A DNA stretch of 60,695 nucleotides, counting the filler, from Globobulimina sp. (taxonomy: Eukaryota), in NCBI GenBank assembly GCA_003354225.1. It is 15 parts of 15 records of this genome, joined end to end, with 100 filler letters (N's around TTAATTAATTAA, not from the genome) between each part and the next. Parts side by side here need not be neighbours in the genome. Positions count along the whole stretch, not along the records: positions 28,400 to 32,351 come from PIVH01001834.1; 14 more parts are not named here. One strand, written 5' to 3'. Below the pieces are notes generated by a model. It was not told where the DNA came from. It worked only from the letters and a program-made list of their open reading frames with translations, and did not search any database. A program made the translations under genes and the position numbers. Below, one piece after another: positions 8,122 through 58,966 of the stretch (positions are counted from its first letter, which is position 1; each line of letters opens with the position of its first letter).

Positions 8122-11100
8122 TGTTGCTGTTGCTGTTGCTGTTGCTGTTGGGCCGCAGCATTACGTATTAAATTAATTTGATTCATTTGATTTATTTGCT
8201 GTTGCGCCGCCGCAATCTGTTGCCTCTGCAATAGTGCCGCAGCAGCCATTGGGTTAAGTGTACTTTGTATAATCCTCGGCGCCGTATGTCCAATATGATG
8301 AGTCGCTAAATGTTGAGTAGAATGAGTATGAGTATGAGAAGAATGTGATGAATTATTGTTATTTTTATTTAATAAAGAACCTGTTGATGGTAATATTATC
8401 GTATTACTACGATATTGATGTGTCGCGGCAGCATTTGGCACTGGGACATGTATCGTGGTTTGCTTATTATTATTCATATTGTTGTGACTGTGACTGTGAT
8501 TATTATTCATTATCACTTTATTGTTTGCCGTTGGCGTATTGGCAGTGATCATATTGGGATCATTTTGAAAATCATCCACATGGATAGATGGCGCTCGACC
8601 GCCCGTATAATTATTTGAGCGAAACCTATCCGTCCCACTCATTCTCATTTGTTGCTGCTTATTCATATTCATATTATTATGCATATTCATATTATTGTTT
8701 AATTTTATATTATTATTATTTGAGGTGATAGGAACGGCATTGAATATGGAAGATATCCCTTGCACCATTTCCATATACACAGAGGGCGGATATACTGAAA
8801 AATCATAATTTGTGGAATAGGAACATAGCCGAATAATGGATAACATATTGCCATGCCACCAATTCGTAGTCGACTCTGCAAATAATTTATACCACACACT
8901 ATCCGCACAAAAATATTTCCGATTCTTATTGTATTTACTAAACCGACCATTGGCATATATCTCCGTTAACAATTCATCCGCGCTCAAATTGTTATGATTT
9001 AATAATATTTCTTCTTTAATGTTGTGTTTATTTTCAAGTACGACATGGTTTGCAGGTATCTCCGCTTTCACTTTCTTTTTAATGTTGCAGTCATTATCTA
9101 ATACAATATCGACATCCCTGTCGTCGCCATCCTCTTCCTCCTCGTTATTCACATGCGGGACGGACTGGTTTTGCATAAATATATCATTACAATATTGTAT
9201 CTCATAAATAATATGATTGAAACCAATCTCATTCAACTTAGTCAACACATTCATGATTGGTTCAAACTGTGTACTGAACAAAGTATTCCATTCGATATAT
9301 TTCTGCACATTTTCCACATATTTTCTTTCATTTTGGTTCAACTTATTAATATGTTTGCAAATCATTGAAATGAACCACGTCAAAATAATTAAACATTGCA
9401 ACTTTTCAGAAACATGCAAATTAAAATTATGCGAACTATTGGTATTCGCATACGATTTTAAAAAGGATAACGATGACATTAATATCGTTTGAATTAACTG
9501 CAGCGGGAAATATTTAATCACGATATTAATATTAATATTCGGCAACGATGCAATTCTGCCATAAATAACAAAACAGCACATCCAAAATCGCCATTGGAAC
9601 TCAGTGATAACAGTGGCGCAATTGGACGTAAATTGCGCTGCGGATAACACCGTGTTCAAATGAGATAATATAATGCCAATATCGTCGGAAGAGGGCAAAT
9701 AATAATCGCCATTCAACGCATTCCCGCCCGATATGTTATACGGGATATATGTCAATGCGCATTGTAAGATATCAGTCACTGCCACTACTAAACCACTGTC
9801 ATTCTGCGAGATGTATTGAAACAATTTGGTTAATAATCCATCCGTTTTTAAATATAAAATCCGCACAATGCGTGGATCTAAAATCCAGCAATTACAGTCT
9901 AAAAAATATTTCCTCCGCTCCGTAATTATGATCCTTTCTTCTTCTGCTTCTTTAGCTATTTTCCTATTTTTGTCTTTATCTCTATCTCTGTCCTTATATT
10001 TGGAGGAATGTTTGCTGTCTCGTTTGTGTTTCCTGCCATGTCTGCTGCGACTACGTGAATGGGAATGAGAGTGCGAATGTGAGTGCGAATGGTGGGAGGA
10101 TCGATGGTGACGGTGGTGCCGACGATGTCGCTTATTGTCAATGGGGCTGCGTGTACGGGATCGACCATTATGGCTGGAACCGTGGTGTTTTTTGTTACTG
10201 TTATTGTCATTTATGTTTGCTTGGCACTGTAATGTGATTTTATTAATTTCCTTTAATAGCTGATTGATTGGCGTAGTATCAATTTTGTGTTTATATTTGC
10301 TGCAATTGATGTACGTGGAGAGAATCGAGGGTGATACCAATGTAATACACCAGGCATCGCGAAGCATCCATGACAAACATTTGCATAATCGAATCAATTG
10401 CCACTTAGAGCTGGCCACCGCAGCGGTATTATTCATATCGGATTCCTGGCTTTTCCCTAAAAACTGACTGAAGATCATCTCAATAAATGGATTTAACACA
10501 CATTTGGCAATGTTGATATCCATTTGCGATAATTGTATATAGACACAAGGCAATATTTCATGGATGGAAAAGTCTGACGACAGTGCTAAATTCTTCATAC
10601 ATACTCTCAAAATCCGCTGTGCGCTGTTCTGTGTCAGGCGGTCGATCCAATATTGCTTCAATCCCAACACATTGACATGGATTAAACACTGATGCAACGT
10701 TACTAGATTTATATTAAATAGCTGCGGCTCATAGGCCAGCGTTTGCAGAAAGGCTTCAATTTCAAATTTCTCCCCATATAATAATGAATCATCAATGCCA
10801 TCCTCGCAGATATCATGACTTTTGTTCTGATTCTGGTTGTAATTATTGGTCGGCGGACACAGCGTAAATGCAAATATGCCAGCAATGGACTCATGAATTA
10901 ATTGTAATGCCGGATTGGGAGGCAATTGAATGTAATCATTTGTATATTCCCTGCTGCAGTCAACAAAGGACAGCGAGGACATATGGAACGGATCAATAAT
11001 GTGTGTAAAATAGTGATTATTGCGGGTAAAACTGCCCATGTCATGCGGCAAGATACGCGAAGCTAAAACGCGTTGTACTTCAAACAAATCAGCACAGATA

Positions 11101-12080
11101 TTGTATGGGTATGAAAAGGCATTGTTGACATACAACTCATTGAGATAAATATACGTTAAATGTAACGTATTGCCTAATAATTTCAATATTAATTCGAACC
11201 GTTCGTCCTCCGCTGCATTTTCATTCTTGTTGAAAAATGCTATAAAGGTACGCAGAATGATAGGCACCATATTGATAAACGACTCGCTGACTAATAATTC
11301 AATGATAGCAGGACAGGAGGCACACGCTATGAATATGGATAAGATGCTGTTGATAGAATAGAGGATGGACTTATTCTCAATATCAATTTTGTTATTTGCT
11401 GGTAAGCGTAAATGGAAAAACTCCAAATCAATGTCGTAATCGCCGCCGGTTTCAGCGGGTTCAAAGCCAATCAAAGTGGCAAATACTTTCAATATCGATT
11501 TGAATCCATGCTCTCGTAACTTGACCACTGACTGTAACATACCCACAACACACTGCAAATCATTGGCTAAGGTCTCGTTAAATGAGGGCATTCTCGGAGG
11601 CCGCGTGTATTCTTCGTCTTCATTGTTGCTGCGGTTATGTGTGTTGGTTATGGTATGGTCCTTTTCCTGCAAACTTTTGTTCATTTCTTGCTTAGATTTG
11701 ATGATTTTGGGCTGCACCGCTTGGTACATAGTGACAAAGTCAGTCAATAATTGCTGGAAGAAATCAAAATATAACGGATTTAGTACAATGTGGCTGAAGT
11801 ATTGCGACTTGAATAAGTATAGTAATAATTTAATGCCATAACCTGTGAAACCGGACGGATTTATAACACTTCGGTCCTGCGGGTTGAATGCCAGCCATAT
11901 CAATTCGCAGATGTTTACGAATGACTTTGTATGGAATAGTCCAAACGCGATCGATTCCATATTCTCGGAGTAATTGGTCAATAAATCTAAGACGTATAAG
12001 GCTTTCAACTGTTTGGCGGATTCTTTTGCGGAATGGCGAATGTGATGAAGTAATACCAATATCTGCAATTGTCGGCAGAT
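8122..12080 (-). CDS. Virilizer/VIRMA-like m6A-writer-complex scaffold, partial at both ends
   Basis: ORF of >1300 aa spanning the contig with a helical-repeat character. Late motif DRFRSNNYTGGRAPSIHVDDF matches the virilizer C-terminal FR..NTSRPPSxHVDDF signature. Includes an RS/H-rich insert. Confidence 0.7.
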
Positions 12081-14096: not shown

Positions 14097-16137
14097 TCAG
14101 AATAAAATTTCCTTTCTGCAAAGTGGACACTGTGTATTTGATTCATTGTATTCCTCAATGCAATGTGTATGAAATTTATGTCCACATTGCAATTTAATAG
14201 ATTCATTATCCAATAATATATCCAAACAAATCACACAATTCATTGCTGAATATGATAATGTTGGCTGTTGATCAATCATTCCATCATCGGATACATCATT
14301 TGGTTCATTATTATTCTCATTCATATCCATTTGTGTATTATTCGAATGATCGTTAAAAGGGTTGGTTTTTACTTTAGTTTTTCTAACTTTGTTTGGTTTT
14401 GTTGTTTCAAAATCAGCGTCTTTATTGTTATTAATATTACGCCGATTCTGAGGCGCATGATGCAGCTCAATGTCATCTCGAAAAGCTCTCATTGCAATTT
14501 GTCTTTGTTGCTTTCTCTTATATAACAATACTGCAACAATCAATATGCAAACAATAAATACAATTGAAATAATAATACCAATGACAATTGCTTCCAAATC
14601 TGTACAATCATTGCAATTAGGAAACGATATCGCATTATCATCTGAACAGTCCATAAAAATGGAAAAATTGCCATACTCAAAAGAAGAATATCCATTCACT
14701 AAAATATAATAATATCCAGGTTTCACCCCATAATATGTTAACTCATTACAATATGAATGTGTTTGCTCAATGTTTAACCATTCATTATCTCTGCCAAAAT
14801 AATATAATTCTAATACAATATCAAATGTAGTGTATGAGTCATTATAACATGTTTTAAATTCAATCTTATATTCATAATAATTTACTTTAAACGCATAAAA
14901 CTCTTCATCACTGTTAAACGATTCTAAATATCCAGTACGGATTTCATTACATAATAAAACATTGTCATTTGACGGTTCAACGTATCTGCTCTGCTTTGGT
15001 GGCGAAGCAAATTGGATGTATTCAGTGTAATTTATGGCCTGTTGCACAGCTGAATTGTCACTGCATTCCATATGGATGGAATAATCACCTTCCAGCCAAT
15101 AAGACATCGAAATGGAAACTGCATAATGAGTATTATTCGAAAGATTTGTCCAATTTATACGATTACAAGAATTCCAATCTCTTTCTGAATATAAAGAGGA
15201 AGAAGTCACAGTATGCCAATATCCAAATTTATTCTCAATGTATGGTTTGTAGTTTAATTTTCTATATTCTTTCAAAGACAGTCCATTTCCTTTTGCATCA
15301 TTTGGATCACAAGTATGAAATGCGACGTATTCTAAAGCAGAACTGGTCACAAATTCATATGCAAAGGACTTTCCATCGGATGCATGACCTTTCACTGTCA
15401 AACCACAAGAGATATCATTTAGTGTTTTCATGTACCTTTCTTTTCTATACCAGCTAATATCAGAATCAATTGGATCAAATAAACAATGCATATCCAGCGT
15501 ACTATGATTATATGCCTTGGAGTTACACGTTTGTTCGCTTATCAATCTGTAAATACCTTTTTTGAATGCTTCTGATGTTGGAATCCGTTGCCAATAATTA
15601 GACATATTTAGGTAATAAATTGAATGGCGCCAGCAATTATTATCTATATTTACAGAGAATGTTACCGAGCCATAAGTAATTGAGGTCATGTAAAATTCAT
15701 AAAATTTTGTTTGGTTGATATCGTTAATTGGTTGGATATTTAGTTGATCATTGCATTGAATTGATTCGAATGCATTATCTTCAATTATATGTGGATGCGG
15801 ATAGTATAAATCAGGGAGATTGTCTCCAGAACAATTCAATGATAAAACATAGATTCCGCCATCCCCGTCGTCGTCAGAAGGGTCACCAATTTTTGCGTAA
15901 TAAATGCCTGTGCTGTACAATCTGTAGGTGTATGCTGATTGCAATTGACTATTACTTGTAACTGTACCACCAATTTGTGTGGATACAGCACAGCTGGTAG
16001 CAGATGTAAAATATGTTAAGTTGCCGTGAACATCAAATAAAGACAAATATGTATAGATGTGGGAACCGCAGGTTGAAAATCTAAAGCTGCCAACATTTTC
16101 ATTTAGGAAAAATGAATAATAATGCTCATATCCAGAC
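14097..16137 (-). CDS. Receptor-like membrane protein with repeated extracellular beta domains and C-terminal RING-H2 E3 ligase, 5'-truncated
   Basis: Frame is open to the contig edge. About four repeats of F.TC....FD..L.LY...GxY.I.MxCS (PPC/CUB-like). TM AIVIGIIISIVFIVCILIVAVLLY. RING-H2 CVICLD..CGHKFHTHCI..CPLCR. Confidence 0.85.
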
Positions 16138-16237: not shown

Positions 16238-19200
16238 ACAAAGCTCAAATCGCCGCCTTGACCGACATTATCACCAAGAACGGCGTCAAGAACTATAAAT
16301 TCAATGGTTTGTATTTATATATTTATTCCAGGTTTGGTACAAACAATGACAGTTTGTCACTGTATACACAATTAATTAGGTAATACATTCACATTACAAC
16401 GTAAAACAAACGGCGACGATGTGGCCACCGCCGGCAAATTAAGCCTCAAATTGGACGAAGACGACATCGATAACCAACGCACCATCAACAGCAACGGTGT
16501 CAACGTGGTGAATGACAAAAACGGCAGCGACTATTTGATGGGCTTTGGTTTCCAACATGGCCTCAAAGACAAAGACGACAAGAAAACGCCCGAAAAGAAG
16601 AACTTTTATTTCAAATTGCCGCCGCAGGCCAAGAAGTACGTGGCGTTGCAGGCCGACTCTCTGGATATCCCCAAAACCGCTTTGGTGTTAATGTTAGGCG
16701 TGTTGACCACCAACGGCCCCATTCCCATCTCGCATTATCGTGGCTGGAAGACCAACAATCCAAACATTGTCGGGCTGTTAAACCCTCGCAAACGCAAAGC
16801 GGCGGGCACCAAAACCGACATTGTGCCCAATTTGGACGCGTTGACCGACGCCAGCGACAAGAACAGCGACGCGCTATCCAGCCACAAATCGCCTGGAATG
16901 AACAATAAGTCCTCGCCTGGTATGTTTCCGTACGATTTGCCTCGACAAACCTACTGCAATTTGTACTTACCCACAGTGGGCAGCGTAGGTTCCGGCTCCA
17001 CCACGTTATTCCACGAAAACGCGTCCAATGGACATGGCAGCAAACGCTCGTCGCCCTTGAACAGCAGCGTGAAAAAGCACAAAATGATGATTAGTAACAG
17101 CGCGTCGTCCGCCTTGATGCGCGCGCCGTTGGTGAACAAAGGCACGTTGAACAAAGTGAACCCGCCCTCCGCTGCCACGGCGTCCGCCTCGGCGCCCGCT
17201 GGCAATAAACGCATGTTTCAGTATCCAAACAATTCGGCCCTAGGCGCGAGCAGCTTATTTCATAACAGCTCGGCGCGCAACTTATTAGTCAACAACAAGA
17301 TGAATATGAACGGCGGCATGCCCAATGGCAGCAATTTGACCTTGATCTCGCCGCGCGGCGTCTCCCTTATCCGCATGAAATCGAATGGTACGTCGACGTT
17401 GTTATCGCCTACGGCGGCCAGCATCTTATCGCCGCGACAGCGCACCAATAATAATAATCTGATGGGCGGCAATTGCAACGCGGCTCCGCCGGCCGTGGTG
17501 GTGCCCAATACGACGGATTTCAGCCCCATGAAACAGACTGTCGGCAACGGCTTTTCTATGACCACGCCCATCGCCAATATCACGCCGGTGCATATCCCGT
17601 ATTTGGGGCAAGGAAATCAAAACGGAATGAACGGGCAATCGCCGCTATCCGGCTTCCAATCGCCAATGAATTACAACATCAATACACCGCAGTCACCGTT
17701 GGGTAATTATCCTGGAATCACGCCCATTATCAACGCCTTTACCCCTACGGCGACCGGCGTGAATGCCATCACTCCCACGGCGAGTTTGCCGTTTTATTGG
17801 AGCGGCTTACATAAAAACAATAACACCAACACCATGGGCAATATCAATATGGAGAATGACCCGCTCGCTCCACACAACAATATCCCTCCGTTTTTGCCGC
17901 AGAATCAGCATAATATGAACAATGTGCAAGTGCCGAATCACAGCGCCAACCCATACGTACAGTTTAGTATACAGTGATTTGTAAATAAGCTACAAACCTT
18001 GTTCTATTTGGTCATGTTTTACCTTTTTTGTGTGCATGTTTTACACAGAAAACAGTTGCAAAACAACCCGTTATTGCAGGCAAACAACAACCTCATGAAT
18101 AATGGCATGAATAACGGCATGAATAACATGAACAATAACATGAGTAATATGAACATTGCTTCGTCGCCCATTGGCAAACCACCGCCTTCCACGTTCTTTA
18201 AGTATCCGATACCGAACGAAGAGCCCAAATCGTCGCCGTCCAACAGCAATAATATCATGAACGGCAACGTGTTGCTAAACAATTTGAACAATAACCTCAA
18301 TAATTTAGTGCAACAGCAAAGCATTAACTCCTTCACCTCCAACAACGACATGAATAACATCAACAACAACATGAACAGCATCAACATGAACAACATCAAC
18401 AACATCAACAACATGAACAATATGGGCAATATGAACAACAACAACAATATGGATGACGACGGCATGGAGGAGCGACAAATGGATGAGCCGCCCAGCTTGG
18501 ATGAGATCAATAATATGCGCAACATCCCTTCGGTCATCTCGCCCAACGGCACCACGCCGGTCGTCATGATCACCAATTTGAACGAAGATGAGATTGACTG
18601 CGACAAAATCTTCACACTCTGCGGCGTCTTTGGCGACGTGCAGCGCGTAAAAATCTCGTACCATAAACGCGACACCGCCTTCGTGCAGCTATCCAATCAC
18701 CGCCAGGCCAAACACGTGGTGACCTCCTTGAACCGCATGCAATTATACGGCAAGATGATCCATGTCAACTTATCGCGGATGACGCGGGTCAAATTACCCA
18801 AGGATTCGCCAAACAGCGCCATGATGTTCCCCGACGCCAAGTTCCTGACCAAGGACTATACCAATTGCAAGAAGCACCGATACAGCAAAAAAGGAGCGGG
18901 CGGCATCAAGTACTCGCCGTTGAGCATCGGGCAGCCGTCGCATATCTTACATATCGCGAACTTGCCCATCCAATCGGAGGCCAAAGACCTTCAGGAATTC
19001 CTCTGTGGCAATGGCATCTTTTGTAAGGATAACAACGCGGCGGGCGGCAAGTCGCGCTTTGCCGGCAATGACAAGATACAGTCGATCGAGTTGATTGGTG
19101 TCAATAATAAGTTGGGTTCGTGCCAGGCGTTCGCGAAGTGCCACAGCGTGGACATTGCGTGCCAAATACTGATTGATTTCCATAGCAAAGAGTTCCTAGG

Positions 19201-19962
19201 AAGAGAAATCAAAATCTCCTTTGCTACGCGCAGCCATATGCCGTCTGACATCAATAAGACGCACAAAACGTACTCGTATTCGACCAATAAGAAGATCGGA
19301 GCGAGCATCAATAGCATCCCTTCGTCGATTCCGCGACAAAACAACAGCAACGGCATGAATAATAATATCATGAATGGCAATGGCAACAATAACAGCGGGG
19401 ATAACATGTCTTCGTCGTCGTCGTCGAATGGACAGTCGTCGCATAACTCGCATGGCAATAACGGCTATGTGCAGTATAACAACTATATGGATAATCGTAA
19501 CGGTTATAATAGTAATCGGACTTATAATAATCAAGTTAATTGCTGCTCCTTTCCCCAAAATGTGATGAATGTTAAGTTTGTTTGTGACGATATACAGCGA
19601 AATTCGTACATGTCATCGTATGATAATTCGGTTGGGTATCAAACCTATAACATTGTGAATAATAATAAGCAGCCACCACCTGATGTTTAGTGCTCTATTT
19701 GGTGTCTTTTGCCATATAATTATACTGTCATTGTACAGCAGGATAAGATCTTTGTACGACAACATCATCACAGTGGAGGTATGCAACACTATCGCGCTTA
19801 TCGAGTCAAACATAAATCTCGTCGATAAAGCTGATATTGACCCCCCATCCCCCAAAAAATGCGTTTAATTCTGCCATTTTTCTGAAAAAAAGTGCTTTTT
19901 TTGATTTATTTTTATTTTTAACAGGAAGGAAATATCACTATAAATTGAGAATTAATAAATAA
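16238..19962 (+). CDS. PTB/hnRNP L-like RNA-binding protein (RRM3-RRM4 type) with long N/S/P-rich disordered regions, 5'-truncated
   Basis: Motifs VVMITNLNE..IFTLCGVFGDVQRVKI, LTKDY..HRY and PSHILHIANLP match PTBP RRM3/4. Frame-consistent introns at 16307-16379, 17957-18055, 19535-19597, 19685-19738 and 19779-19924; the protein ends ...GRKYHYKLRINK*. Confidence 0.85.
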
Positions 19963-24900: not shown

Positions 24901-24986
24901 ATTGACTGTGAAGAAGCAATTGCAAGAATGAAAAGGTTTTGTTGAAAATTGTCAAGCACTAAACTCCTTTTGATGTTTTAGAGACA

Positions 24987-26852
24987 ATGAGAGCTTTACA
25001 ATGGTTGAAAGACACTGTTTCTCCCATTTATCGCAATGAGAAAAGATTGAAGAAAGTTGTCATATCAACCAGCGTCATCTACATTGGATTTCAGATATTA
25101 AAGAAACTATATTTTAATTATTATGACAGAGTGGAATATACCACATTAAAAGACATTATATCAAAACAGACAAAATACGATTTTATTATTGTTGGAAGTG
25201 GCAGTTCAGGCTCATGTGTGGCTGGATTATTAACCAGAGATCACAGAAAACCAAAAGTATTATTAATCGAAGCAGGTCCGCCTGATATTTATCATCCATT
25301 CTCAAATGCGGTAATTCCATTTTTTGGTTCAAGAAACCGTGGAGGTGATAAAGACTGGCAATATGATTTGCAACCATTCAAAAACAAGAAATTGCACCAT
25401 TGGCCTCAGGGAAAAGTGATGGGCGGAACCTCTTTATTCAATGCCATGGTTTATGTCCGCGGCAACAAACATGATTATGATGAATGGGATGACAAATATA
25501 AATGTAAAGGGTGGAGTTATAAAGATGTTCTACCAATTTTCAAATCGTTTGAAAAGTGTTTATTCGAAAATAAAACTAATATTAATGTGAGAGGTTATAA
25601 TGGTTTGCAGAAAATATCCAAACTGCCTGAAAACAAACAGCATAAATTAGCAAAGTTGTTTGTGTCCGCTGCAATGAATGCTGGCTATGAATTGAACGAT
25701 GATTATAATGGGATGGATCAAGACGGCGTTAATTATACACAACATAATATTGACGAAAACGGGCGGCGATTAACTAGTTTCCGAGCGTTTGTTGCTACTT
25801 TGTTTGAAGAAAGAAATAAATATTCAAATATTGATATTTTAGCCAATGCCCAAGTGACACAAATATTGTGTAAAAAGAATATGAATACAGGGCAAAATGT
25901 CGCAGTTGGGGTGGAAATTGGATGTAATCCGTCACAGCGTATATTTATTAGTGATGAATGTGGAGAAATAATAGTAAGTGCAGGAACTGTGGGCTCTCCG
26001 CATTTATTATTATTGTCAGGAATTGGCGACAAACAACAATTAAATGAACATAAAATCGAATGTGTTTCTCATATTGCTGGCGTTGGACGTAATTTACGTG
26101 ATCATTTTAAGCAATCTGTATATTGTTCAGTGCCTCACACACAAATACCAAAACTGTCAAACATTTATAATTATTTTGCATATTTTTGGCATGCAAAAGG
26201 AGTGTTTTCTAGCATTGGTATTGATGCGCAAATATTTACTAAATCGTGCGTAGCGAAGCGAAATAAATTAAAAACTAATGATTTGCAAATTGTCGCTTCG
26301 TGTATAGCTCGGCATAAAAATGAATGTACCAATGTCCAATCCGAAATGGAAGCGAGTACTCCATATACTTATCAATTTGCTGTTGGTGCAGATGTAGTGC
26401 GACCACAATCCGTCGGATACGTTCGATTAAAATCAAATGATCCTTTTACAGATCCAGAGATTCAACCAAATTATTTATCTCATAAACAAGATTTAGAAAT
26501 ATGTGTTGATGGTATAATTGAAGCAGCGAACATATTGCAACAAGAACCTTTTAAGTCATTGGGGTTTAAACTCATCGAATATGAACGATTTGATACAGTG
26601 AAAGAATATGCACAATATATTACCCAACAACAATTATTAACGTTATATCATGGAGTTGGTACATGCAAAATGGGTGATATCGAGGGTGATATATTTGCAG
26701 TTTGCGATGAAAGATTAAAAGTCAAATCATTTGCAAATTTGAGAGTGGTGGATGCTTCAATTGCTCCTGATTTGGTGGCTGGCAATGTACAAGGAATGTG
26801 TTTTATGATTGGTTGTAAAGGCGCCAAAATGGTTTTGGAAGATTGGAACTGA
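24987..26852 (+). CDS. GMC oxidoreductase (choline/glucose dehydrogenase-like)
   Basis: Motifs YDFIIVGSGSSG, LLIEAG, GKVMGGTSLFNAMVYVRG, SAGTVGSPHLLLLSGIG, YHGVGTCKMG and LRVVDAS..GN. Confidence 0.95.
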   Translation: MRALQWLKDTVSPIYRNEKRLKKVVISTSVIYIGFQILKKLYFNYYDRVEYTTLKDIISKQTKYDFIIVGSGSSGSCVAGLLTRDHRKPKVLLIEAGPPDIYHPFSNAVIPFFGSRNRGGDKDWQYDLQPFKNKKLHHWPQGKVMGGTSLFNAMVYVRGNKHDYDEWDDKYKCKGWSYKDVLPIFKSFEKCLFENKTNINVRGYNGLQKISKLPENKQHKLAKLFVSAAMNAGYELNDDYNGMDQDGVNYTQHNIDENGRRLTSFRAFVATLFEERNKYSNIDILANAQVTQILCKKNMNTGQNVAVGVEIGCNPSQRIFISDECGEIIVSAGTVGSPHLLLLSGIGDKQQLNEHKIECVSHIAGVGRNLRDHFKQSVYCSVPHTQIPKLSNIYNYFAYFWHAKGVFSSIGIDAQIFTKSCVAKRNKLKTNDLQIVASCIARHKNECTNVQSEMEASTPYTYQFAVGADVVRPQSVGYVRLKSNDPFTDPEIQPNYLSHKQDLEICVDGIIEAANILQQEPFKSLGFKLIEYERFDTVKEYAQYITQQQLLTLYHGVGTCKMGDIEGDIFAVCDERLKVKSFANLRVVDASIAPDLVAGNVQGMCFMIGCKGAKMVLEDWN

Positions 26853-28299: not shown

Positions 28300-28399
28300 N
28301 NNNNNNNNNNNNNNNNNNNNNNNNNNNNNNNNNNNNNNNNNNNTTAATTAATTAANNNNNNNNNNNNNNNNNNNNNNNNNNNNNNNNNNNNNNNNNNNN

Positions 28400-28524
28400 G
28401 ATTTATTCATTGCTCCAATTGTACCTGTACTGTTCCATAAGGCAATGGTCAATCCACCAATAGATACGTCGCTGGCATAGACACGGTAAAGAGTGCAGAG
28501 GGTGGTTATAATGAAGAAGTTCAT
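28400..28524 (-). CDS. N-terminus of a secreted protein (truncated)
   Basis: MNFFIITTLCTLYRVYA looks like a signal peptide and the frame is open to the contig edge. Confidence 0.4.
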
Positions 28525-28650
28525 ATTGGTAATTGATTTGGGTGTAGGAAATATGTTAAAGTCAATAGAATACAATTTAAACTTGCGTCCAATTAATTAT
28601 TGTAAAACTAAATTAGTGTTTTTGACTGAGTCAGTTCTAGAGTCGTCATA

Positions 28651-31600
28651 ATGGCTGCTACAAACCCAACTCTTCAGAAGGTTTCTCAGATAGGTTTATT
28701 TATCGTTTTACTGTAATATTAATACATATATTTATTTTACGCACAGTTCAAACACGAACATTACGAACTGCAAAAAGAGCATCAACATCAAATGAAAGAA
28801 ATGGAAAAGTTGCGCAAGGAATTGGCAGTAATGAAGGAAGAAAATGAGAGATTAAAGCAAAAATTGCCAGAAACACAACGTGAAGCATTGACGGCACAGT
28901 TTTGGCAGGAGATCACCAGGAAAGTGAGGGAGGACAATATTGATTTTATCAAACAGTTAGTAAATAAGAAGAAATTGGATATGATGGACACCGATTCCAA
29001 GGGACAGACTCTGTTAATATTGGCTGCGAGAACTGGCTGCTATGAGCTGGTCCAATTATGTCTCAATTTGGACGCAGACATTAATGTCACTGATAAAGCG
29101 GGCAAAACTGCATTGGATCATTGCCGGTTAGGCGCATGGACTCATATTGAACGGCTATTGATATTTAGCAAAATGAAGGCCAATGTCGGAGACTCCATAC
29201 TTATCTCCGCCAATACCATGAACCGACAAAAGGGAGTCATCGAAAATATTGTCAACCAATTAAAGCATTACACGAAATCAAAGAAAATATTCAAAGACAC
29301 CGTAATCGATTTAATGATTGGAATAATTGAGAATAAATTGGCATTTTCCGATGATTTACTGAACTTAGCCTGGGAGTTTGCGTGCGGTGACACTTTAAAT
29401 TTGGCTCCAAATCAGAACAAAGCAAATGACACAGTTTCCAATCCATTGTCGACCAAATTATGGAAATCCATCCAAAAAACATGCAAAAATGTGATTGAAA
29501 ATGGCAACAAAAGAGATTGGTTTTGGTTCAAACAATTTATTGTTCCGTCCACCATTTGGTTTAAAGATATTTCTGCATTTGGCAGGTTCGAGGATGAATT
29601 GCTTCGAATTGATGCAGATGCGGACGATGACATTTTGCAAAGTAATTATGATGTTACTGATTCTAAAATGGATGCCATTGAAACAAAACAGAATGACAAT
29701 GCTGATTATGTATATTACCAATTATTAAAATTAGTGGACAACGAAGCAAAGACTGACTTGCAAGAATTGGAAAATAATTTGAATCAATCCGTGCAACAAC
29801 AACCTGATAATTGGGACAAATTAGTTCATTGGGATTTGGATTTAAGTGATGTTGTTTCAGATGGCATTGTGAGACAAGACAGAGTCGCAAATGGCATCCC
29901 ATTGAAACATACGTTTGAAGAGCTAACAAAATGTGGTGTTTCTGGCACCAAATTCAACACGCATTCGCATTATGATTTGAATCAATATTTGCCTGAATTG
30001 GTGTTATTAGCCCATATCGTTGATGATGCATTTCAGCACAGTGTTTGTGGCATATTTGAGATTGACAAAGCAACGAACAACGGACTTATACTGAAAATGG
30101 ATGATTCTGACGAGAAAGCTGAGGCCGCAGAGGTAAAATATATGAGAGGTCCGGTTAAATTGATGGAGAGAGCTCGGGCGAAGGCGGAAAATGATTATTG
30201 TAATGGTGAGTATCCGACGTCTGCGTTGGTGCTGGATTTGAATCGATGTGCTTTGGTGTTTGGTGATATTAATTCATTGTTGATGGGCTTACATATGTTT
30301 GTCAACAAAATCAAATATTATCAGTCCGGCAATATCATTGGAATAATGAGGGTAAAGAATGGCTTCATAGAATATGCCAAAGAGACACAATATGCTGACA
30401 TCAAATTGAATGTTTTAATTAAAGGGCCTCGTTCCAATTTGGTGGGAGAGGTTCAATTTTTATTGGACACAATGTTGAGTTTCAAGAAGAAGGCCCATAA
30501 TTTATATGCAGTGCAGCGGCAAGAAGAATATATGCAATCCTCAGTTAAACAAATATTGCCATTGCTGTTAAATGATAAAAAGGAATTATTTGTGGCTGGC
30601 AATGCCGGCGATATTAAGTCTTTGTGTCGCTTAATGGTTTTGAATAATAAAACTGACGTCGATTTGATGCAAATTGATGAAGAAAGCCAAGAAACGATAT
30701 TGACAAACATTTGCGCTTTGAATCATGTCAAAACATTGAAGTTCTTAACTGATAAAAATATCATACGGCGGGAGCTATTCATTGAGAGATTATTCCATTC
30801 GAATCGGTATAATTCCACTCCGATTGAAGCTGCCTTACATCGTGGGTCTATTATGATGATTGGGGCAATATTTGCGATGTCAGAGGTTATCAAAAAATAT
30901 CAAACCGACGATTGTCAATTATATCGACTGTTGCTTACAATGTACAGACCATTCAATTACAATGAACAGCGGCAAAACATTAATCTGTATATATTGAGTA
31001 AACTGAACCTATCCACAGAAATATTGACTAAAATGATGAGTTTCGAATATCCGAAGAATAGAGACATTGGAAAACAAGAAAAGTCGGCAAATAAATTTTT
31101 AAATGGAATGTTAATGAGTAACATTGCATTGACCGGTCACTTAAATGCTGTCTTATATTTTGCAAAGCGAGTCGGAGAGAAAGTTTTTATGGATGATATT
31201 TTCAATAAAACTGATTTTTTAAATGTAACCTCGTTTAGTTATTGCATTCTGGAACAAGGCCGAAAGAATAAACGAAGAGATTTGATGAGTGTTATAACGT
31301 ATTTCTTATCGCATCCATTTGTTATTAGCTCCATTCAACAAAATATGAATACTTTATTTCGTATTGTTTTCTGTATTTTTGTCTGCCATCAAACGGATAT
31401 ATTTGGATATATTATCAATGCATTAGAGTTGGATAAAAATGATAAACTTTTAAAAGTGTTGCAATTTGAAGGAGATATGGGATATAATAACACCAGTCAA
31501 ACAAAGGTAAAATTAAAAGTATTATCCAAGACATATGACGAGAAATTGATGGTAATTGCAATGAAAAACAATCATATCGATGCTTGTAAGCAAATGATGG

Positions 31601-32351
31601 AAATAATCGGCGACAAAGGATTTGTAGATTTGTTATTTGAATCGAATAAATACAATGTGAATGCGTGGGAGTGTGCAATCTGGAAATCGTCATTGGAAAT
31701 GGTTGAGTGGTTATTAAGTATAGAATTACTTAAACAATACATATTGAATTCGAATGGCAATGGAAAGGGAAAAGAGATCTTATTTCGAACAATATTTTGG
31801 TGTTTGAGCAGATTCCGTGAGAATATATTTGATTTAATTAAGAAAGAATTACAAATAACGGATAAAATATTGACACAATTATTATCGTATCGACCTCGCA
31901 AACCAGGCGTTGGTACATTTGATGTTCGAGCAAAGAAATATTGGGACAAAGGATTGATTGTAGTCGCATTGACTAGCTATGATATTATAATTGTACAGCA
32001 ATTGGTTGATATGGTAAATCCAATCGATTTTGCAAAACAAGTATTTGCGCCAAATCGGAATAATTTAACTGTTTTGGAATTCTTAATACAAAAATGTAAG
32101 TTTGAAATGGTGAAATTTGTGATAAAATTGGAAGCCGTGCAAAATATATTGATGCAGAATGATGAGTATTTGTTTCGAATTATTTATTGGATGTTTCGCA
32201 AATACAATGCAAACATATTTGATTTAATTGTGGAATCATTAACTTTTATAAACAAAGATAGGTTGGTTAAATTATTGGATTTCAAAGCAAATAATAAGAC
32301 TCATGATGAGATGAAGACAAATGATGAGAATGATAAACAAATATCCGTTGA
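28651..32351 (+). CDS. Ankyrin-repeat protein with RelA/SpoT-like nucleotidyltransferase domain, 3'-truncated; intron 28681-28746
   Basis: Exon 1 MAATNPTLQK|FKHEH. Ankyrin motifs GQTLLILAARTG and GKTALD. Central motifs GPVK..RARAK..DY, LDLNR, RVKNGF, YADIKLNV and GEVQF. Degenerate ankyrin-like repeats follow. Confidence 0.75.
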
Positions 32352-32451
32352 NNNNNNNNNNNNNNNNNNNNNNNNNNNNNNNNNNNNNNNNNNNNTTAAT
32401 TAATTAANNNNNNNNNNNNNNNNNNNNNNNNNNNNNNNNNNNNNNNNNNNN

Positions 32452-35400
32452 GAGGCAAATGATGAATGCGCTGAATGATAGTTACTCGCAGTGGAAGTGT
32501 GAGAGGGAGCGCGAGAAGGAAAACATTGACAGCAGCAATATGGATAATCGCAGTGTCAGCGTCTCATCGCATATCAGTGGCTGTAATGTGTTTAAGTTGC
32601 CGTTCCCGTGGGACTCTGCCACACATTTGACGCAGTTCCTGTATATTTGCGAGAAGTTGGCGTGCTTTTATTATCACGAATATCGGTCTAAGAAATGGAT
32701 TGACAAAATCATCGATGCTTTCTATAGAAATATCATCAATTTCCCCACGGTATGCTCGCCTTTGCCTGTTTTTGTTTTGTTTTTTATGTTTCTTGTTCTG
32801 TCCAGGAACATATTCGTACATTAAACGATGTCGACGCAATGTACTACCAAAACTATACCCGGCAGTACGCCGCAAACTCATTAAATCATATCATGACATT
32901 ATTCAATAAGATCATATGCACCGTGTACGAGGACAATGGCATTGATTACGAATATGTCGGTGAGGAATATGATGTGTTGCACGATGGCAATCGTATCATG
33001 GACATTACCTTTTTGTCCATCTACATGAAACAGATCGGAAACAGTAATGTTGAGACACAGCTGCGTGGTTTGAACAAAATCTATGACATTCTGAAGAAGA
33101 TCCAATCCCGCTGTAACCGCGAGAGACGTTATAATAATTGCAATGGAGACTCGCCTTATGACAAATTCGATGACGGCATCACTTCGTGCGGCAGCAGCGG
33201 CAGTAACAATAATAAGAATTATTATAATTTCAATTACTTACAACATAAATGGTTATCGGAGCCGCGTTTGGCAGAATATCTGACGCGCCAAGGTTTCATT
33301 GCATTGTTATTTGAGCGTGACTCTCATAACAAAATCCTAGAACGCTCTGGGAATATTATACAATTTCTGGCGGAGCAGCAACGAATCAATCAAAAGGATT
33401 TGCAGTTAATTTGGACGCGCTGTCAAGATAAACATGAGTCGCAATCGGATGCGTATTATAAATTAATCAAAACGTTAGCACTGTCATTGGATGCACATAA
33501 TATTCAATTTCTGTTGCAAATTATTACCGAAACAGACAAACAGGAACGGAATAAGGATTATGTTAATATTATTTATACCATTACTAAGTATGCCGCACAA
33601 AAGAGATTTAAACTCCGTTGTAAAGCGTTAGCAAAACAGACGCAAATCAATATTAATAACAATAATATTCCACACCCACAACGGGAAACTTATTGGTTCG
33701 GATTACGCAATTTATGGGACATTTCCTTGGATGATAACTTTGCAGAGTCGGGTTTGCAAGGCCAAGCGCAAGGTTTTGTGGTGGAATTGCTATCGCATCA
33801 ATGCTTTGAGTCGCAGATTGAGATATATTTAATGAAATGCGTCAAATTATTACAACATAACCCTCAGCATACTGTGAAAGCATTGCGCTTCTTTAAAACC
33901 ATCAGTATACGACATATATGGAGTAATACCTACAATAAAAGTGGTATACAGCAGCAATACAATGCTGAATTGGTCAAATCTATCGCTAAAAAGCATAACT
34001 TATTACAGTTGGTATTTGACGATTTACGCAGCGATTTTTCGCAGCAAAATCATAACCGCACCGACAGTAATACGCAGAATCAGATACAGCATTTAATACA
34101 AACCCAGTTTACTATCGGTGCCAAGCATGAATCCTTGCGGGAGAGATTAGTATTTATTGATTTTTTGCTACGCTTTGCAGATGGTACCATTGCTCAGGAA
34201 CAAGTGAAGGAATTATGGGAATTAGTTGTCTGTAATCCAGGCTTAGGTAAGTTATTGAAAGGCGATGGTTTGGATTTCTTCTGTGATGCTATTGACCCTC
34301 AAAAACAAGAAAAACATTTTTATGATGCATTTTGCGGTCAGAGCAACGTGCCTCAAATGCATATGTCGCGGCCATACAACGCGGCATTTACTGATGATAT
34401 CACCCATTATGTTGGCAATCATTTGTGTAACACTTTAGATGCAAAATTAATGACTATTAAACATTTTAATTTACGCAAAGCTTATTTTTACCGCATCGGC
34501 GTATTGGATGGTGTATATAAATTAGTTTCGACGCATTATTATCTGACCGATGCGAACCGATTAGACATTGATTGGTTATGGAACATTGTCTTTGACGCAG
34601 TCAATTGTAATGTGTCCAGTGCTGCTCAGTTGTTAATAAAAGATGTGTACACATTGATTGACAGTGGCACCGGTATCAACATCTCGTTACTATATGAAAC
34701 CTTTGTGGATAAATGTATGACGCACGCACATAATGCCACGCGTCCCTCCACGCCACAGAACAACATTGCTGACAGTAACGGCGATGTATGCATGCACGCC
34801 CAAGCGATGCAAGCCAGGCAACTGCAATCTGCTCCAAATACAAATTTGATGGCGCAACATTTACAATCGTTATTAAATGCAAATAACAACACACAAAATG
34901 CAGAACAAGCCAACAGAAAGACCATTAAACGCTGTTTTAGTTTATTACGAATGGCGATCGATCATTTTGGCGGGAAACGGCATGGTAATCTCATCCATAT
35001 CGACCTGGTGTTTGTCAATATTAACATTTCCGGTCTGCACAAAGACAACAAACGCGTCAAGATCCAAATGGGAGAGTTACAAACCTGTAGAGAACTATTT
35101 GTACGCTGTCAACAAGAAGTTGCGAACCGGTGTACAGACCCAAGCAAAACCTACACAATCAAAGGCTTAATCAAATGTGGCAAACGCATCGATCAGGACC
35201 ACACCACCTTGGCGGATGAATTCACTTTTGAGAAACCTAAAGAGGTCAATGTAGTGTACACCATTGCCGACAGGGCTATGCATCCAGAACACTCCTGCAA
35301 TGAACAAAAGACAATGTCCAATCCCAGACCGCAAGCGCCACCGCCCCTTGTCATCAAACCGCCGTTGCAATTGGCGCCAACATTGCCCTTCGACTCACCC

Positions 35401-36402
35401 ATCCCTTCCGGTGCCGCACCGGAACAAACTGCGCACTTTCCCACTATGACCGGTTTGCGTGGCTCGGTGCTGGACTCAACGTACACGCCGAACACACCTG
35501 ATCCAGAAAGCAGCAGTAATCCGCCCATGGCCATTGGCGGAGTGGATGTGGACATTGAAGCCATGAGCAATGACGCCAGCATTATACAGCAACAGAAACA
35601 GTTAGAATTAAGCATTCGATATCGGTCCAATAGCTGCAGCACCGTAGGTATGTCTGATGCGAATAACAGAGAGCATGGTCCTTCTCCGCCGCCCCCGCCC
35701 TCCGTAGAGAAGCAGAACGGTACTTATCCAGTCACCCCGCGGCAGAATAGGAAACCGCCATACTTTGGACCGCAAAATAGGAAGCCGGAGAAAATGAAAC
35801 AATTAACTTTGACCTCAATGTACAAAGCCGGCGCTGCTGACTGTAAACAATGTAAAGCTGCACCGCTCGCTGTGACGGCACCGCTGCCGGCAGCTACTGC
35901 GAAAAACAGTGATTACAGTGATTTCACAACGGGTGGATTGACGCGAGTGGATTCTATGTTGGGTACTATGGACATGGAAGTTAATAATGTGTCGCCGGTG
36001 CATCCATCTGATATATTGTCCAAAGCGAAATATTTTAATCAATTGTTTGCGTTCTTGGCGTATCCGCATGACATTGCCTGCGAAGCCTGGGAGATACTTC
36101 GCAAATTACCGCTGAATCGAGATAAGAAAATGTGTGTGAAGGATTTTGATAGCGGTTGGAACAAAATGTTTGATTTGCAACAAGATGGCAGTGTACTGAT
36201 GGCGCGCTACGGGTTGGATATCTTAGCGAAATTGACTCGGAATGATGTCAAGATGTATAAACAAAGCAAATGTAAACTGATGCAGTTGGACGATTCAGTG
36301 CAGAAAAAGGAGCTGCTGTGCACTCGATGGATTGTACAATTTATACGCAGACATGGTTTAGTTTTAGTATTACAATTATTAATTTCCATCAATGTACAGG
36401 TA
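32452..36402 (+). CDS. USP9X/USP24/USP34-like deubiquitinase, N-terminal helical + UBL-like region (partial), intron 32750-32805
   Basis: Motifs QLRGLNKI, WL..LAEYL, LF..DSH..ILERS..IIQFL, LIW....KHES, a UBL-like LIKCGKRI..TLAD, and PSDILS..YFNQLF..AWEILRKLP. The catalytic domain is not in the contig. Confidence 0.75.
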
Positions 36403-57011: not shown

Positions 57012-58882
57012 TCAATCGTTACTCAACAATACATTTCTCGAATGTTTGTATTTGGAATATTTTGAAGATTTGGAGGATTTTGAGTCTTTCCTGTTCTTAT
57101 ATGTTATGATTGGTTTTAAAATCGCAACAACTGTAATCAAGTTATGGTCAACTAAATCCTGTATAACCTTTGCAATATCTTTGTATGCCAGCGGTGCTTC
57201 CTCGTACATTAAGCTTTTATCCCCACAAATAACATGACTTTGTAATTCCGTTTTTTTTAATTGATTTACATTTGGACATTTCTTGGACATTTTTTTTACT
57301 GCCTGGCTCCTCGTTAACTTTCGCCCGGCGCCATGAGCCAATGAATACCCATAATTTCTCTGTTCCTCGTTTGGTTTCACAATGTATGAATATGCGCCAC
57401 GTGAACCTGCAATAACAACATAGCCGCAATCACTCGGCGCCGCTCCTTTTCTATGAATGTACCAGAACTCTTCCTTGTTTTCCTCAAATATCGCTACCAA
57501 TTCATCCAAAATACCTATACACTGCGAATATAACTGTCCATCATTACTTTTCTCACAAATATCAACCACATCCCGCTCCATTTTACGCTCTGTATTTCCA
57601 CTGTCCATTTCTCGCAATATTTCTCTTTCCACGCTAACAAATTCATGTTTAGCTTTACCGCACAAATAATTATGATAAACATCAATATGACAGATACAAT
57701 TATCAAACGCAAAAGCGGTGCCTGCTCCCATGCAACGTAAAAACCTCTGAGCAATAATCATTCTATTTTTCCTCGCCCACTTCAATGCATTGTCATGCAA
57801 AAGCATATACGATTGAAAATCATCAGAGCCGACATCCAGCGGTTTCTGCGCTTTATGCGCTTTCAAATAATTGTCCAAAATGGCAGCACCAAAGCCTCGC
57901 GAACCAGAATGTACGGTAAGAAACAATTTATTCGCATCCCAGCCCAATTCAGCAAACAAGTCGCCATCAACGATCTGTTCAATACACTGCAACTCCGCGA
58001 AATGATTGCCATGGCCGATGGTCCCCAGTGCGTGGTCAAAGGCATGTATATTGACTCCATTTTGAATGACGGCATCAATGTCAATTCCATCTTCCTCTGC
58101 GTTGGAAGGCCAATCTATTAACTTATTACGCAATATTTGTTGATCATGAATCCAGGGCTCATCTAATTTGATATCATGGAGCCATCGATGCAACCTTTGA
58201 TCATTGACAATATCTTTGCAAATATTCGTTTCAATCAAAGCCATTCCGCAGCCGATATCTGTGCCAATTAAGTATGGATATACGTACTGCTGCGATACTA
58301 AACTGACGCCAATCGGATAACCTTTACCCGGATGAATGTCGGGTTGGGCCACCACTAATTTCATTCCTTTTAAACGTTGGCAAGCTTCCAACTGTTTCTC
58401 TGCATCGCTGGAGATTGTGGCGGATGATACAATGCAGCGCATCAAACAAATATGTTTTTGCGTTGCGCCCATTTCCTTACGTATACCGACATATTCTTCT
58501 CCCAGACTCACTGAAATGGATAACGCTGTAAAAAGAAATGATGTGTGATCAAATTCATTTTTTTTTGTTTGTTTGTTAACTTGTTTTGAAATTCTTAGCG
58601 TATTGAAGGGAGATAAGCTGTTTGATGTTGCTTTTGGTAATTTCTTCTCCTGTTTGATTCAGGAAGAACTTGTGTGGCTAATATGTGATATAATTTATAA
58701 TGACTTATTATAATTTGAGAGAATTTGCGTTGTTAACTCACTTTTTTTTTGATTCTTAGTTTGTCCTTTGATAGTTTTACCAGTTTTTTGTAAAATTTAT
58801 CGGTTGAGTCTGGTTTGATTTTACATGTTTTGTTGACACTGCGGTTTGCATTTAGACATATTTGTATTGTTATTGAAGCCAT
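57012..58882 (-). CDS. rtcB: RtcB2-type (PrfH-coupled clade) RNA 3'-phosphate/5'-OH ligase with extra N-terminal domain; exons 58882-58742, 58677-58581, 58525-57012; 583 aa
   Basis: Motifs QPDIHPGKGYPIG, IGTDIGCGM, LGTIGHGNHFAELQ, VHSGSRG, DVYHN, HRKGAAP, GSRG, SLAHGAGRK, SHVIC..LMYEEAPLAYKDI and PIITYK. Two phase-consistent GT-AG introns (64 and 55 nt) extend the ORF to an ATG at 58882. Confidence 0.92.
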
Positions 58883-58966
58883 TATTCGTGTATTTTAAAT
58901 GTCAAAAACTTAAAAGATAAATGCGTCGCCAATAGAGTCACTTTGCAATAGCGTAGTGCCGTCGTC
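58883..58966. promoter_or_regulatory. 84-bp divergent intergenic region (putative bidirectional promoter)
   Basis: Lies between the ATG at 58882 (-) and the ATG at 58967 (+), so both 5' UTRs and promoters must fit here or overlap. Confidence 0.55.

Follow-up and report, generated by a model that had tools for sequence, protein, structure and literature searches.

Introduction

RelA/SpoT synthetases occupy a central place in the stress signalling of bacteria, in their toxin-antitoxin systems and in their defence against phages. RelA/SpoT homologue (RSH) proteins of eukaryotes include the plastid RSH1-4 and the Mesh1 hydrolases, while the synthetases so far recorded in eukaryotes belong mainly to plastids, to a few genes for divergent small alarmone synthetases (SAS) and to the unstudied effector domains of fungal NOD-like receptors (NLRs). 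Here we describe a gene of the foraminifer Globobulimina sp. (assembly GCA_003354225.1), whose predicted protein, P0001, carries a very divergent domain of modelled RelA/SpoT fold between two regions of ankyrin-type repeats. The gene lies in a window of 60,695 bases, by which we mean the whole stretch of DNA analysed; all coordinates below are positions in that window.

The active site of a toxic SAS (toxSAS), FaRel2, provides a point of reference for this domain. As set out in the sections of PMC11782079 drawn on here, residues R64, K66, S70, K74 and R77 of FaRel2 bind the triphosphate of ATP and D90 binds Mg2+, while G93, R95 and Q147 touch the adenine and E145 confers specificity for adenosine nucleotides. 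Tyr128 of the G-loop holds the acceptor base, and the positive patch beside this acceptor Tyr is large in nucleotide-using synthetases and smaller in the tRNA-modifying enzyme. Among eukaryotes, synthetase-only proteins of the divRel type are reported, in the portion of PMC3153485 used here, to occur sporadically in Aspergillus, Gibberella, Dictyostelium and diatoms. Eukaryotes are not mentioned in the main text of PMC7229694, so far as that text was available to us, and the open-access text searched contained no paper tying foraminifera to ppGpp or RelA/SpoT.

Results

A predicted RelA/SpoT-type fold at the centre of an ankyrin-repeat protein

The predicted nucleotidyltransferase domain occupies approximately residues 403-597 of P0001 (29953..30537; like every feature of this gene, on the + strand), where residue n begins at window position 28747+3(n-1). 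An AlphaFold2 model of the domain, built from a 39-sequence alignment, reached a predicted local distance difference test (pLDDT) score of 91.4 and a predicted template-modelling (pTM) score of 0.79, with no segment falling below 50. When this model was compared with the PDB using Foldseek, 36 matches were obtained at E<=1e-3 (best E=7.4e-6), and all 27 of the 27 matches listed belong to the RelA/SpoT superfamily: RelP, RelQ, an exported SAS, Tas1, Rel, RelA, SpoT and CapRel. In a library of viral structures, the best matches to the central domain were likewise phage proteins named RelA/SpoT, YjbM or Tas1. The model therefore supports a synthetase (SYNTH) fold, in which helices flank a mixed beta-sheet, as they do in RelQ, RelP and Rel, and at the level of predicted structure the match is specific for the RelA/SpoT superfamily. 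An initial, sequence-only reading of the locus had proposed a domain of this kind between ankyrin blocks, to be abandoned if no structural match could be found; the matches recovered are both present and specific. The most likely order of the protein as a whole is a short coiled coil, ankyrin repeats, a conserved helical region, the very divergent RelA/SpoT-fold domain and a long, degenerate ankyrin-like array.

The five peptide strings on which that reading was based are all encoded in the single P0001 frame and in the order proposed, between 30148 and 30465. From the N-terminal side, these are GPVKLMERARAKAENDY (residues 468-484, 30148-30198), LDLNRCALVF (residues 496-505, 30232-30261), RVKNGF (residues 535-540, 30349-30366), QYADIKLNV (residues 548-556, 30388-30414) and VGEVQFLL (residues 566-573, 30442-30465). 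In the AlphaFold2 model, the motifs fall on predicted strands and helices at the places where RelA/SpoT enzymes bear theirs. The proposed binding site for the ATP triphosphate, K471-x3-R475-x3-K479 (30157..30183), aligns with K254, S258 and K262 of E. coli RelA. It is followed by D497-L-N-R500 (30235..30246), which would supply an Arg and the Mg2+-binding catalytic Asp; D497 aligns with RelA D275 and, in the model, immediately precedes the second core strand. The proposed equivalent of the G-loop, and hence of the acceptor site, is R535-x-K537-N538 together with Y549-x-D551-x-K553 (30349..30405). Here Y549, D551 and K553 correspond to RelA Y319, S321 and H323, with Y549 placed opposite Y319 in two hhalign runs; QYADIK would be the local form of the GY..H motif, as had been suggested. 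An E-x-Q motif, E568-V-Q570 (30448..30456), aligns with RelA E335 and Q337, and the helix after the last strand carries H584-x2-Y587-x3-R591 (30496..30519), in which H584 and Y587 correspond to RelA H354 and Y357. In FaRel2, the counterparts of RelA D275, Y319, E335 and Q337 are D90, Y128, E145 and Q147, while R64, K66, S70 and K74 make up its basic triphosphate motif and D90, G93 and R95 its D-x2-G-x-R motif.

These positions are strongly conserved in a family alignment of 168 members, whose divergence extends down to approximately 25-30% identity. In the putative triphosphate and metal sites, K471 is kept in 166 of the 168 sequences, R475 in 165, K479 in 166, D497 in 167 and R500 in 166. The G-loop candidates are no less constant (R535 in 165, K537 in 166, N538 in all 168, Y549 in 166, D551 in 167 and K553 in 167), and both E568 and Q570 are found in 166. 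In the final helix, where 166 sequences could be compared, H584 is present in 162, Y587 in 163 and R591 in 162. With the same positions near-invariant throughout this alignment, we conclude that the five-motif pattern is not due to chance.

A large foraminiferal family with exchangeable modules

A HMMER search with residues 330-650 against 1.84 billion cluster representatives returned 659 matches at E<=1e-3, each being a cluster at 50% identity; of these, 345 passed a cut-off of E<=1e-10 and 100 one of E<=1e-30. Word-indexed searches recovered 52 homologs, or 84 with a profile, the closest of them 65% identical. Every homolog with a labelled source is foraminiferal (Bolivina argentea, Nonionella stella or Ammonia sp.), and the others are unlabelled proteins from metatranscriptomes and metagenomes. 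In a Pfam scan of 25 long members at E<=1e-5, ankyrin repeats were found in 21, a C-terminal RCC1 propeller in 3, an N-terminal protein kinase in 1 and an N-terminal coronin-type WD40 domain in 1, with 3 giving no match. NACHT, NB-ARC, HD and TGS domains were absent from all 25 at this threshold, and Pfam likewise found neither NACHT nor NB-ARC in P0001. The individual fusions are those of the kinase in P0023, of WD40 in P0080 and of RCC1 in P0118, P0127 and P0133; these sequences come from Nonionella stella and from unlabelled transcriptomes.

Kinship to RelA/SpoT enzymes at the level of sequence

A number of observations tell against reading the domain as an alarmone synthetase, beginning with the motifs themselves. 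The canonical D-x2-G-x-R is represented by D-L-N-R, in which the Gly is absent and the Arg lies two residues nearer to the Asp; R500, kept in 166 of 168 sequences, is a possible shifted equivalent of this Arg. G-Y-x-S-x-H has become Q-Y-x-D-x-K, and E-x-Q-x-R-T has become E-x-Q-F-L-L, with loss of the R-T pair. In the basic motif R-x-K-x3-S-x3-K, both Lys residues are aligned (K471 and K479) and the Ser position is taken by R475. The first Arg is displaced and has no aligned partner, since R467 stands two residues upstream and is Arg in just 108 of the 168 sequences.

Profile searches add to this list. A comparison with the RelA_SpoT family PF04607 had been proposed for the domain, and Pfam gave no match to it, whether P0001 was scanned whole at E<=1 or the domain was scanned alone at E<=10. 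A scan of 39 members at E<=10 matched 46 families overall, and PF04607 is not one of the 25 that were listed (each unlisted family was matched in at most one member); a precomputed PF04607 label is attached to none of the 52 and 84 homologs. Family HMMER profiles built with flanks (A1) or mostly from the domain only (A2) found no Rel chain in the PDB, returning just ankyrin and chance matches. When the 168-sequence family was compared by hhalign with an RSH profile of 140 sequences, the resulting alignment was assigned a probability of just 9.6%. The residue equivalences given above depend on this weak profile alignment and on position within the predicted secondary structure.

That alignment extended over 107 collinear columns, with a score of 25.7 (P=0.0034). 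In the controls, reversal of the family gave a score of 13.8, and the highest value among 30 column shuffles was 21.7. Earlier comparisons by hhalign had given less: the family against E. coli RelA as a single sequence was not significant, and against a shallow profile of 81 proteobacterial RelA/SpoT sequences the local run yielded E=0.46 and the -glob alignment was meaningless. The RelA/SpoT profile was then enlarged with SpoT sequences and with divergent SAS-type open reading frames (ORFs) found by PF04607 in bacterial genomes, which brought it to 140 sequences, and the weak collinear alignment was seen only once these divergent ORFs had joined it. The signal is modest, yet it sets every motif in the register that the fold predicts. 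A search of a language-model protein atlas placed PF04607-bearing clusters among the nearest, at 5 of 30 with a score of 0.90, which we treat as a lead only. NCBIfam, PADLOC and PHROGs gave nothing meaningful for the domain. Prokaryotic relatives were sought in genome contigs using back-translated peptides from window 30100-30560, an approach able to detect close relatives only, and none of the 31 pattern stretches obtained was confirmed by tblastn.

Gene structure and splicing

Exon 1 (28651..28680) consists of an ATG and nine further codons (MAATNPTLQK). It is separated by a 66-nt GT..AG intron with in-frame stop codons inside (28681..28746) from exon 2 (28747..32351), whose open frame of 1201 codons (28747-32349), translated as P0001, runs off the end of the contig. 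The spliced N-terminus, MAATNPTLQK/FKHEHYELQK, aligns with the N-terminus of the nearest homolog, the transcriptome-derived P0002 of Bolivina argentea. Consistent with this, a 2,705-nt contig of the public run X2 covers 28646-28678 up to the joint and connects 28678 directly to 28745 (a cut displaced by +2), omitting exactly 66 nt with GT..AG ends. Run X2 belongs to a different study from run X1, which provides the best DNA match. So precise a skip is best explained by splicing, which would make the X2 contig a product of mRNA. A spliced gene is in turn a nuclear one, and the intron and nuclear location proposed in the sequence-only reading are confirmed by this exact omission in an independent run. 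On the evidence of these sequences, the gene is nuclear and spliced and, with the X2 contig read in this way, transcribed.

In runs X6 and X8, which represent related strains or species, contigs differ from the gene by insertions and deletions of 6, 6, 27, 6, 6, 6 and 6 nt, all of them multiples of three, which fits a reading frame under selection. An origin of the gene in bacterial contamination was considered and rejected, because the intron is removed in an independent run and the closest relatives are found in foraminiferal transcriptomes.

Since the frame is still open at the contig end, the C-terminus of P0001 is incomplete; contigs of runs X1, X2, X6 and X8 extend at least 95-255 nt past 32337/32349. 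The X1 and X2 contigs depart from the window at 32337, with an odd back-joint from 32351 to 32320 and 6 extra letters. An assembly artefact or a short tandem duplication may account for the final 15-30 bases of the gene's contig.

Regions flanking the predicted catalytic core

The protein opens with a K/E/Q-rich helical stretch (28747..28900) that is, judging by its sequence, a probable coiled coil. Ankyrin repeats follow at residues 61-126 (28927..29124), supported by Pfam matches to Ank_2 (E=5.3e-19) and Ank_5 (E=3.6e-13) and by matches to DARPins in the PDB, so that the N-terminal repeats recognised at the outset are well founded. Between these repeats and the core lies a conserved region at residues 127-402 (29125..29952), modelled by AlphaFold2 with helices only (pLDDT 77.6). 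When residues 127-420 were compared with the PDB by Foldseek, 0 matches passed E<=1e-3; the empty result is no evidence of a new fold, and it gives no hint of a decayed HD hydrolase domain. Pfam found no HD, TGS or ACT domain in P0001, and Foldseek against the PDB found none in the 294 residues upstream, in agreement with the absence of all three noted earlier. The protein has no obvious targeting signal.

The region C-terminal to the core (approximately residues 625-1201; 30619..32349) is a degenerate ankyrin-like array of four modules of ~140 amino acids. Each is marked by L[FY]R...IF..I, with L[FY]R falling at residues 725, 870, 1012 and 1142, and the modules are 19-26% identical in pairwise comparison. 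Their likeness to ankyrin is indicated by a Pfam Ank_2 match at residues 920-991 (E=1.4e-6), and by HMMER matches of a family profile of the C-terminal region to ankyrin structures in the PDB (NOMPC, E=1.5e-13; ankyrin-1/2, E=9.8e-9). The suggestion of more than 600 amino acids of degenerate ankyrin-like repeats is thus partly borne out, giving a fair account of their nature and a length close to the 577 residues present on the contig, beyond which the array continues.

Composition of the window and unrelated contigs

The window consists of 15 unrelated contigs of 3,947-3,961 bp, arranged by descending size and joined by spacers of the form N..TTAATTAATTAA..N, for example at 28300-28399 and 32352-32451. 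As the contigs are merely chained, their order within the window has no genomic meaning, and the ankyrin/RelA-SpoT-like gene has no real neighbours here; it sits alone on contig 28400-32351 (PIVH01001834.1). Sequence to either side, which might have been taken for gene context, belongs to other contigs. No second copy of the gene was found in the window by tblastn with P0001, which matched only the gene itself.

Several genes on the other contigs were also identified. The contig at 56749-60695 encodes an RtcB tRNA ligase (57015-58658, - strand; Pfam E=8.5e-65) and, at 58952-60379 (+ strand), an ORF with a NUDIX domain (E=4.9e-10) and an AAA_33 kinase-like P-loop (E=8.7e-7). A Nudix hydrolase could in principle break down alarmone-type nucleotides. 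An ordinary eukaryotic ALG6/ALG8 glycosyltransferase gene lies on a separate contig (44605-46485, - strand; E=2.9e-130), as do genes for a GMC oxidoreductase (24963-26849, + strand), a RING-finger protein (14100-16136, - strand) and an RRM protein (17978-19687, + strand). At 8124-12080 (- strand), an open frame of 1,319 codons spans a whole contig without a Pfam match at E<=1e-5. The contig that comes next in the window after that of the RelA/SpoT-like gene carries a frame of 1,225 codons (32728-36402, + strand), which encodes an ARM repeat of the USP9X/UBP24 type (E=6.3e-23) together with extended low-complexity stretches and reaches the end of its contig still open.

Discussion

We are now able to propose a function for the central domain of this foraminiferal family. 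Nearly all members keep the putative catalytic Asp, both Lys residues, the acceptor Tyr and the Glu-x-Gln motif, which makes an active ATP-dependent pyrophosphokinase likely. The residues predicted to bind metal and phosphate vary so little that an active enzyme is favoured over a relic. To the full proposal, namely an active Mg2+-dependent pyrophosphokinase that is regulated by the flanking repeats and prefers a purine nucleotide as acceptor, we give about an even chance. While the gene structure, fold, residue conservation and family size are results reported above, the catalysis, donor, acceptor and regulation are inferred, as follows. K471, R475 and K479 would grip the triphosphate of the donor ATP, D497 and E568 would hold the metal, and Y549 would stack on the acceptor base, allowing the beta,gamma-pyrophosphate to move to the acceptor 3'-OH. 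With a purine nucleotide in the acceptor site, the product would resemble (p)ppGpp or (p)ppApp. The repeats on either side would have a binding or regulatory part, setting when or where the enzyme works. Because the residues on the acceptor side are altered, the sequence does not reveal which acceptor is used. A purine nucleotide is weakly favoured, because the conserved basic residues R535, K537 and K553 cluster in sequence around the putative acceptor Tyr.

The main rival to this proposal, which we consider unlikely, keeps the chemistry and changes the acceptor. As in CapRel, FaRel2 and PhRel, the pyrophosphate would be placed on the 3' end of tRNA, and the repeats would form a fused sensor that frees the enzyme when an invader is detected, giving an immune sensor-effector without a nucleotide-binding oligomerisation domain (NOD). 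The sequence-only reading had likewise proposed repeats that sense a ligand and an enzyme that would make a messenger or toxin, perhaps in protist immunity, and what bears on this is indirect: the size of the family and the swapping of its ANK, RCC1, WD40 and kinase modules do resemble immune receptor repertoires, but large ankyrin families also arise for non-immune reasons. RelA_SpoT domains are known as effector domains in fungal NLRs, according to the relevant parts of PMC4986451, whereas neither P0001 nor any of the 25 long members scanned contains NACHT or NB-ARC. Searches with Pfam and PADLOC identified no pseudo-zinc-finger or YXXY autoinhibitory element of the kind that such a toxin might carry. 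Furthermore, the position of R535, K537 and K553 near the predicted acceptor Tyr would fit the larger positive patch of nucleotide-using synthetases, as described in the sections of PMC11782079 consulted.

Two further readings question the chemistry itself. The domain might be a pseudoenzyme that has kept the fold and binds a nucleotide, for example as an allosteric sensor, without transferring anything, leaving the protein as an ankyrin scaffold. In its favour are the missing Gly of DxxGxR, the R-T lost after ExQ, the change of the G-loop His to Lys and the failure of Pfam to recognise the domain. Pseudoenzymes usually lose their metal- and phosphate-binding residues, however, and in this family the corresponding Asp, Glu and Lys are retained in 165-167 of 168 paralogues despite identities as low as ~25-30%, so that we regard this reading as rather improbable. 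It is very unlikely, in our estimation, that the domain is an active nucleotidyltransferase of another chemistry, transferring a nucleotidyl group rather than pyrophosphate in the manner of Pol beta-type, MNT, CCA-adding or cGAS-like enzymes; the fold matches reported above fall within the RelA/SpoT superfamily.

Whichever acceptor is used, the family departs from each of the described systems that it resembles. Compared with RelQ and RelP (SAS1/SAS2; PDB 5ded, 6fgk and 6ewz), the domain is only 11-15% identical, has no PF04607 match, carries altered DxxGxR, GYxSxH and ExQxRT motifs and contains an insertion of ~11 residues ahead of the G-loop strand. It is also part of a eukaryotic protein of more than 1200 amino acids, between ankyrin arrays, whereas RelQ and RelP are stand-alone bacterial proteins of ~200 amino acids. 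CapRel (PDB 7ztb and 9erv), FaRel2 and the secreted (p)ppApp synthetase Tas1 (6ox6) differ in that the gene described here is eukaryotic, monocistronic and spliced, its product has no pseudo-zinc-finger antitoxin domain, and it stands alone on a 3.95-kb contig, without a toxin-antitoxin or type VI secretion system context. In contrast to long RSH proteins (RelA, SpoT and Rel, and the plant RSH1-4), HD hydrolase, TGS and ACT/RRM domains are all missing, and the C-terminus is ankyrin-like.

Other parallels lie among non-plastid eukaryotes. The RelA_SpoT effectors of fungal NLRs, as described in the available part of PMC4986451, are synthetase-only RSH domains in proteins with ANK, WD or TPR arrays, and the divRel SAS proteins (PMC3153485, in the portion used here) are also synthetase-only. 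Both groups, and the plastid RSH1-4 and Mesh1 proteins too, were found by PF04607 or RSH hidden Markov models, by which the foraminiferal domain is missed. In addition, the fungal NLRs place an N-terminal effector ahead of NACHT or NB-ARC and the repeats; here the enzyme is internal, has repeats on both sides, and is accompanied by no such module. The foraminiferal family is therefore set apart by four features: its escape from RSH and Pfam profiles, its expansion in foraminifera, the position of the enzyme between repeat arrays, and the lack of a NOD module.

A more speculative extension, which we consider unlikely, is that the family comprises NOD-less sensor-effectors expanded within the foraminiferal lineage. 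The ANK, RCC1 or WD40 arrays would detect a ligand derived from a microbe, a virus or an endosymbiont and switch on the pyrophosphokinase, and the outcome would be either a local flood of (p)ppApp- or (p)ppGpp-like nucleotides within the giant cell or the pyrophosphorylation of tRNA. If this were true, eukaryotes would have their own counterpart of the abortive-infection immunity of CapRel and other toxSAS, and an immune signal of the alarmone type would for the first time be known from the cytosol of a protist.

Overall, our analysis draws attention to hundreds of foraminiferal protein clusters in which the predicted catalytic residues of a Pfam-invisible domain are kept and joined to ankyrin, RCC1, WD40 or kinase modules. 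A domain of ~230 amino acids would offer a testable entry point to this family. Should its enzymes prove to be active, alarmone-type or toxSAS-type chemistry would be extended to the cytosol in one of the major lineages of protists.

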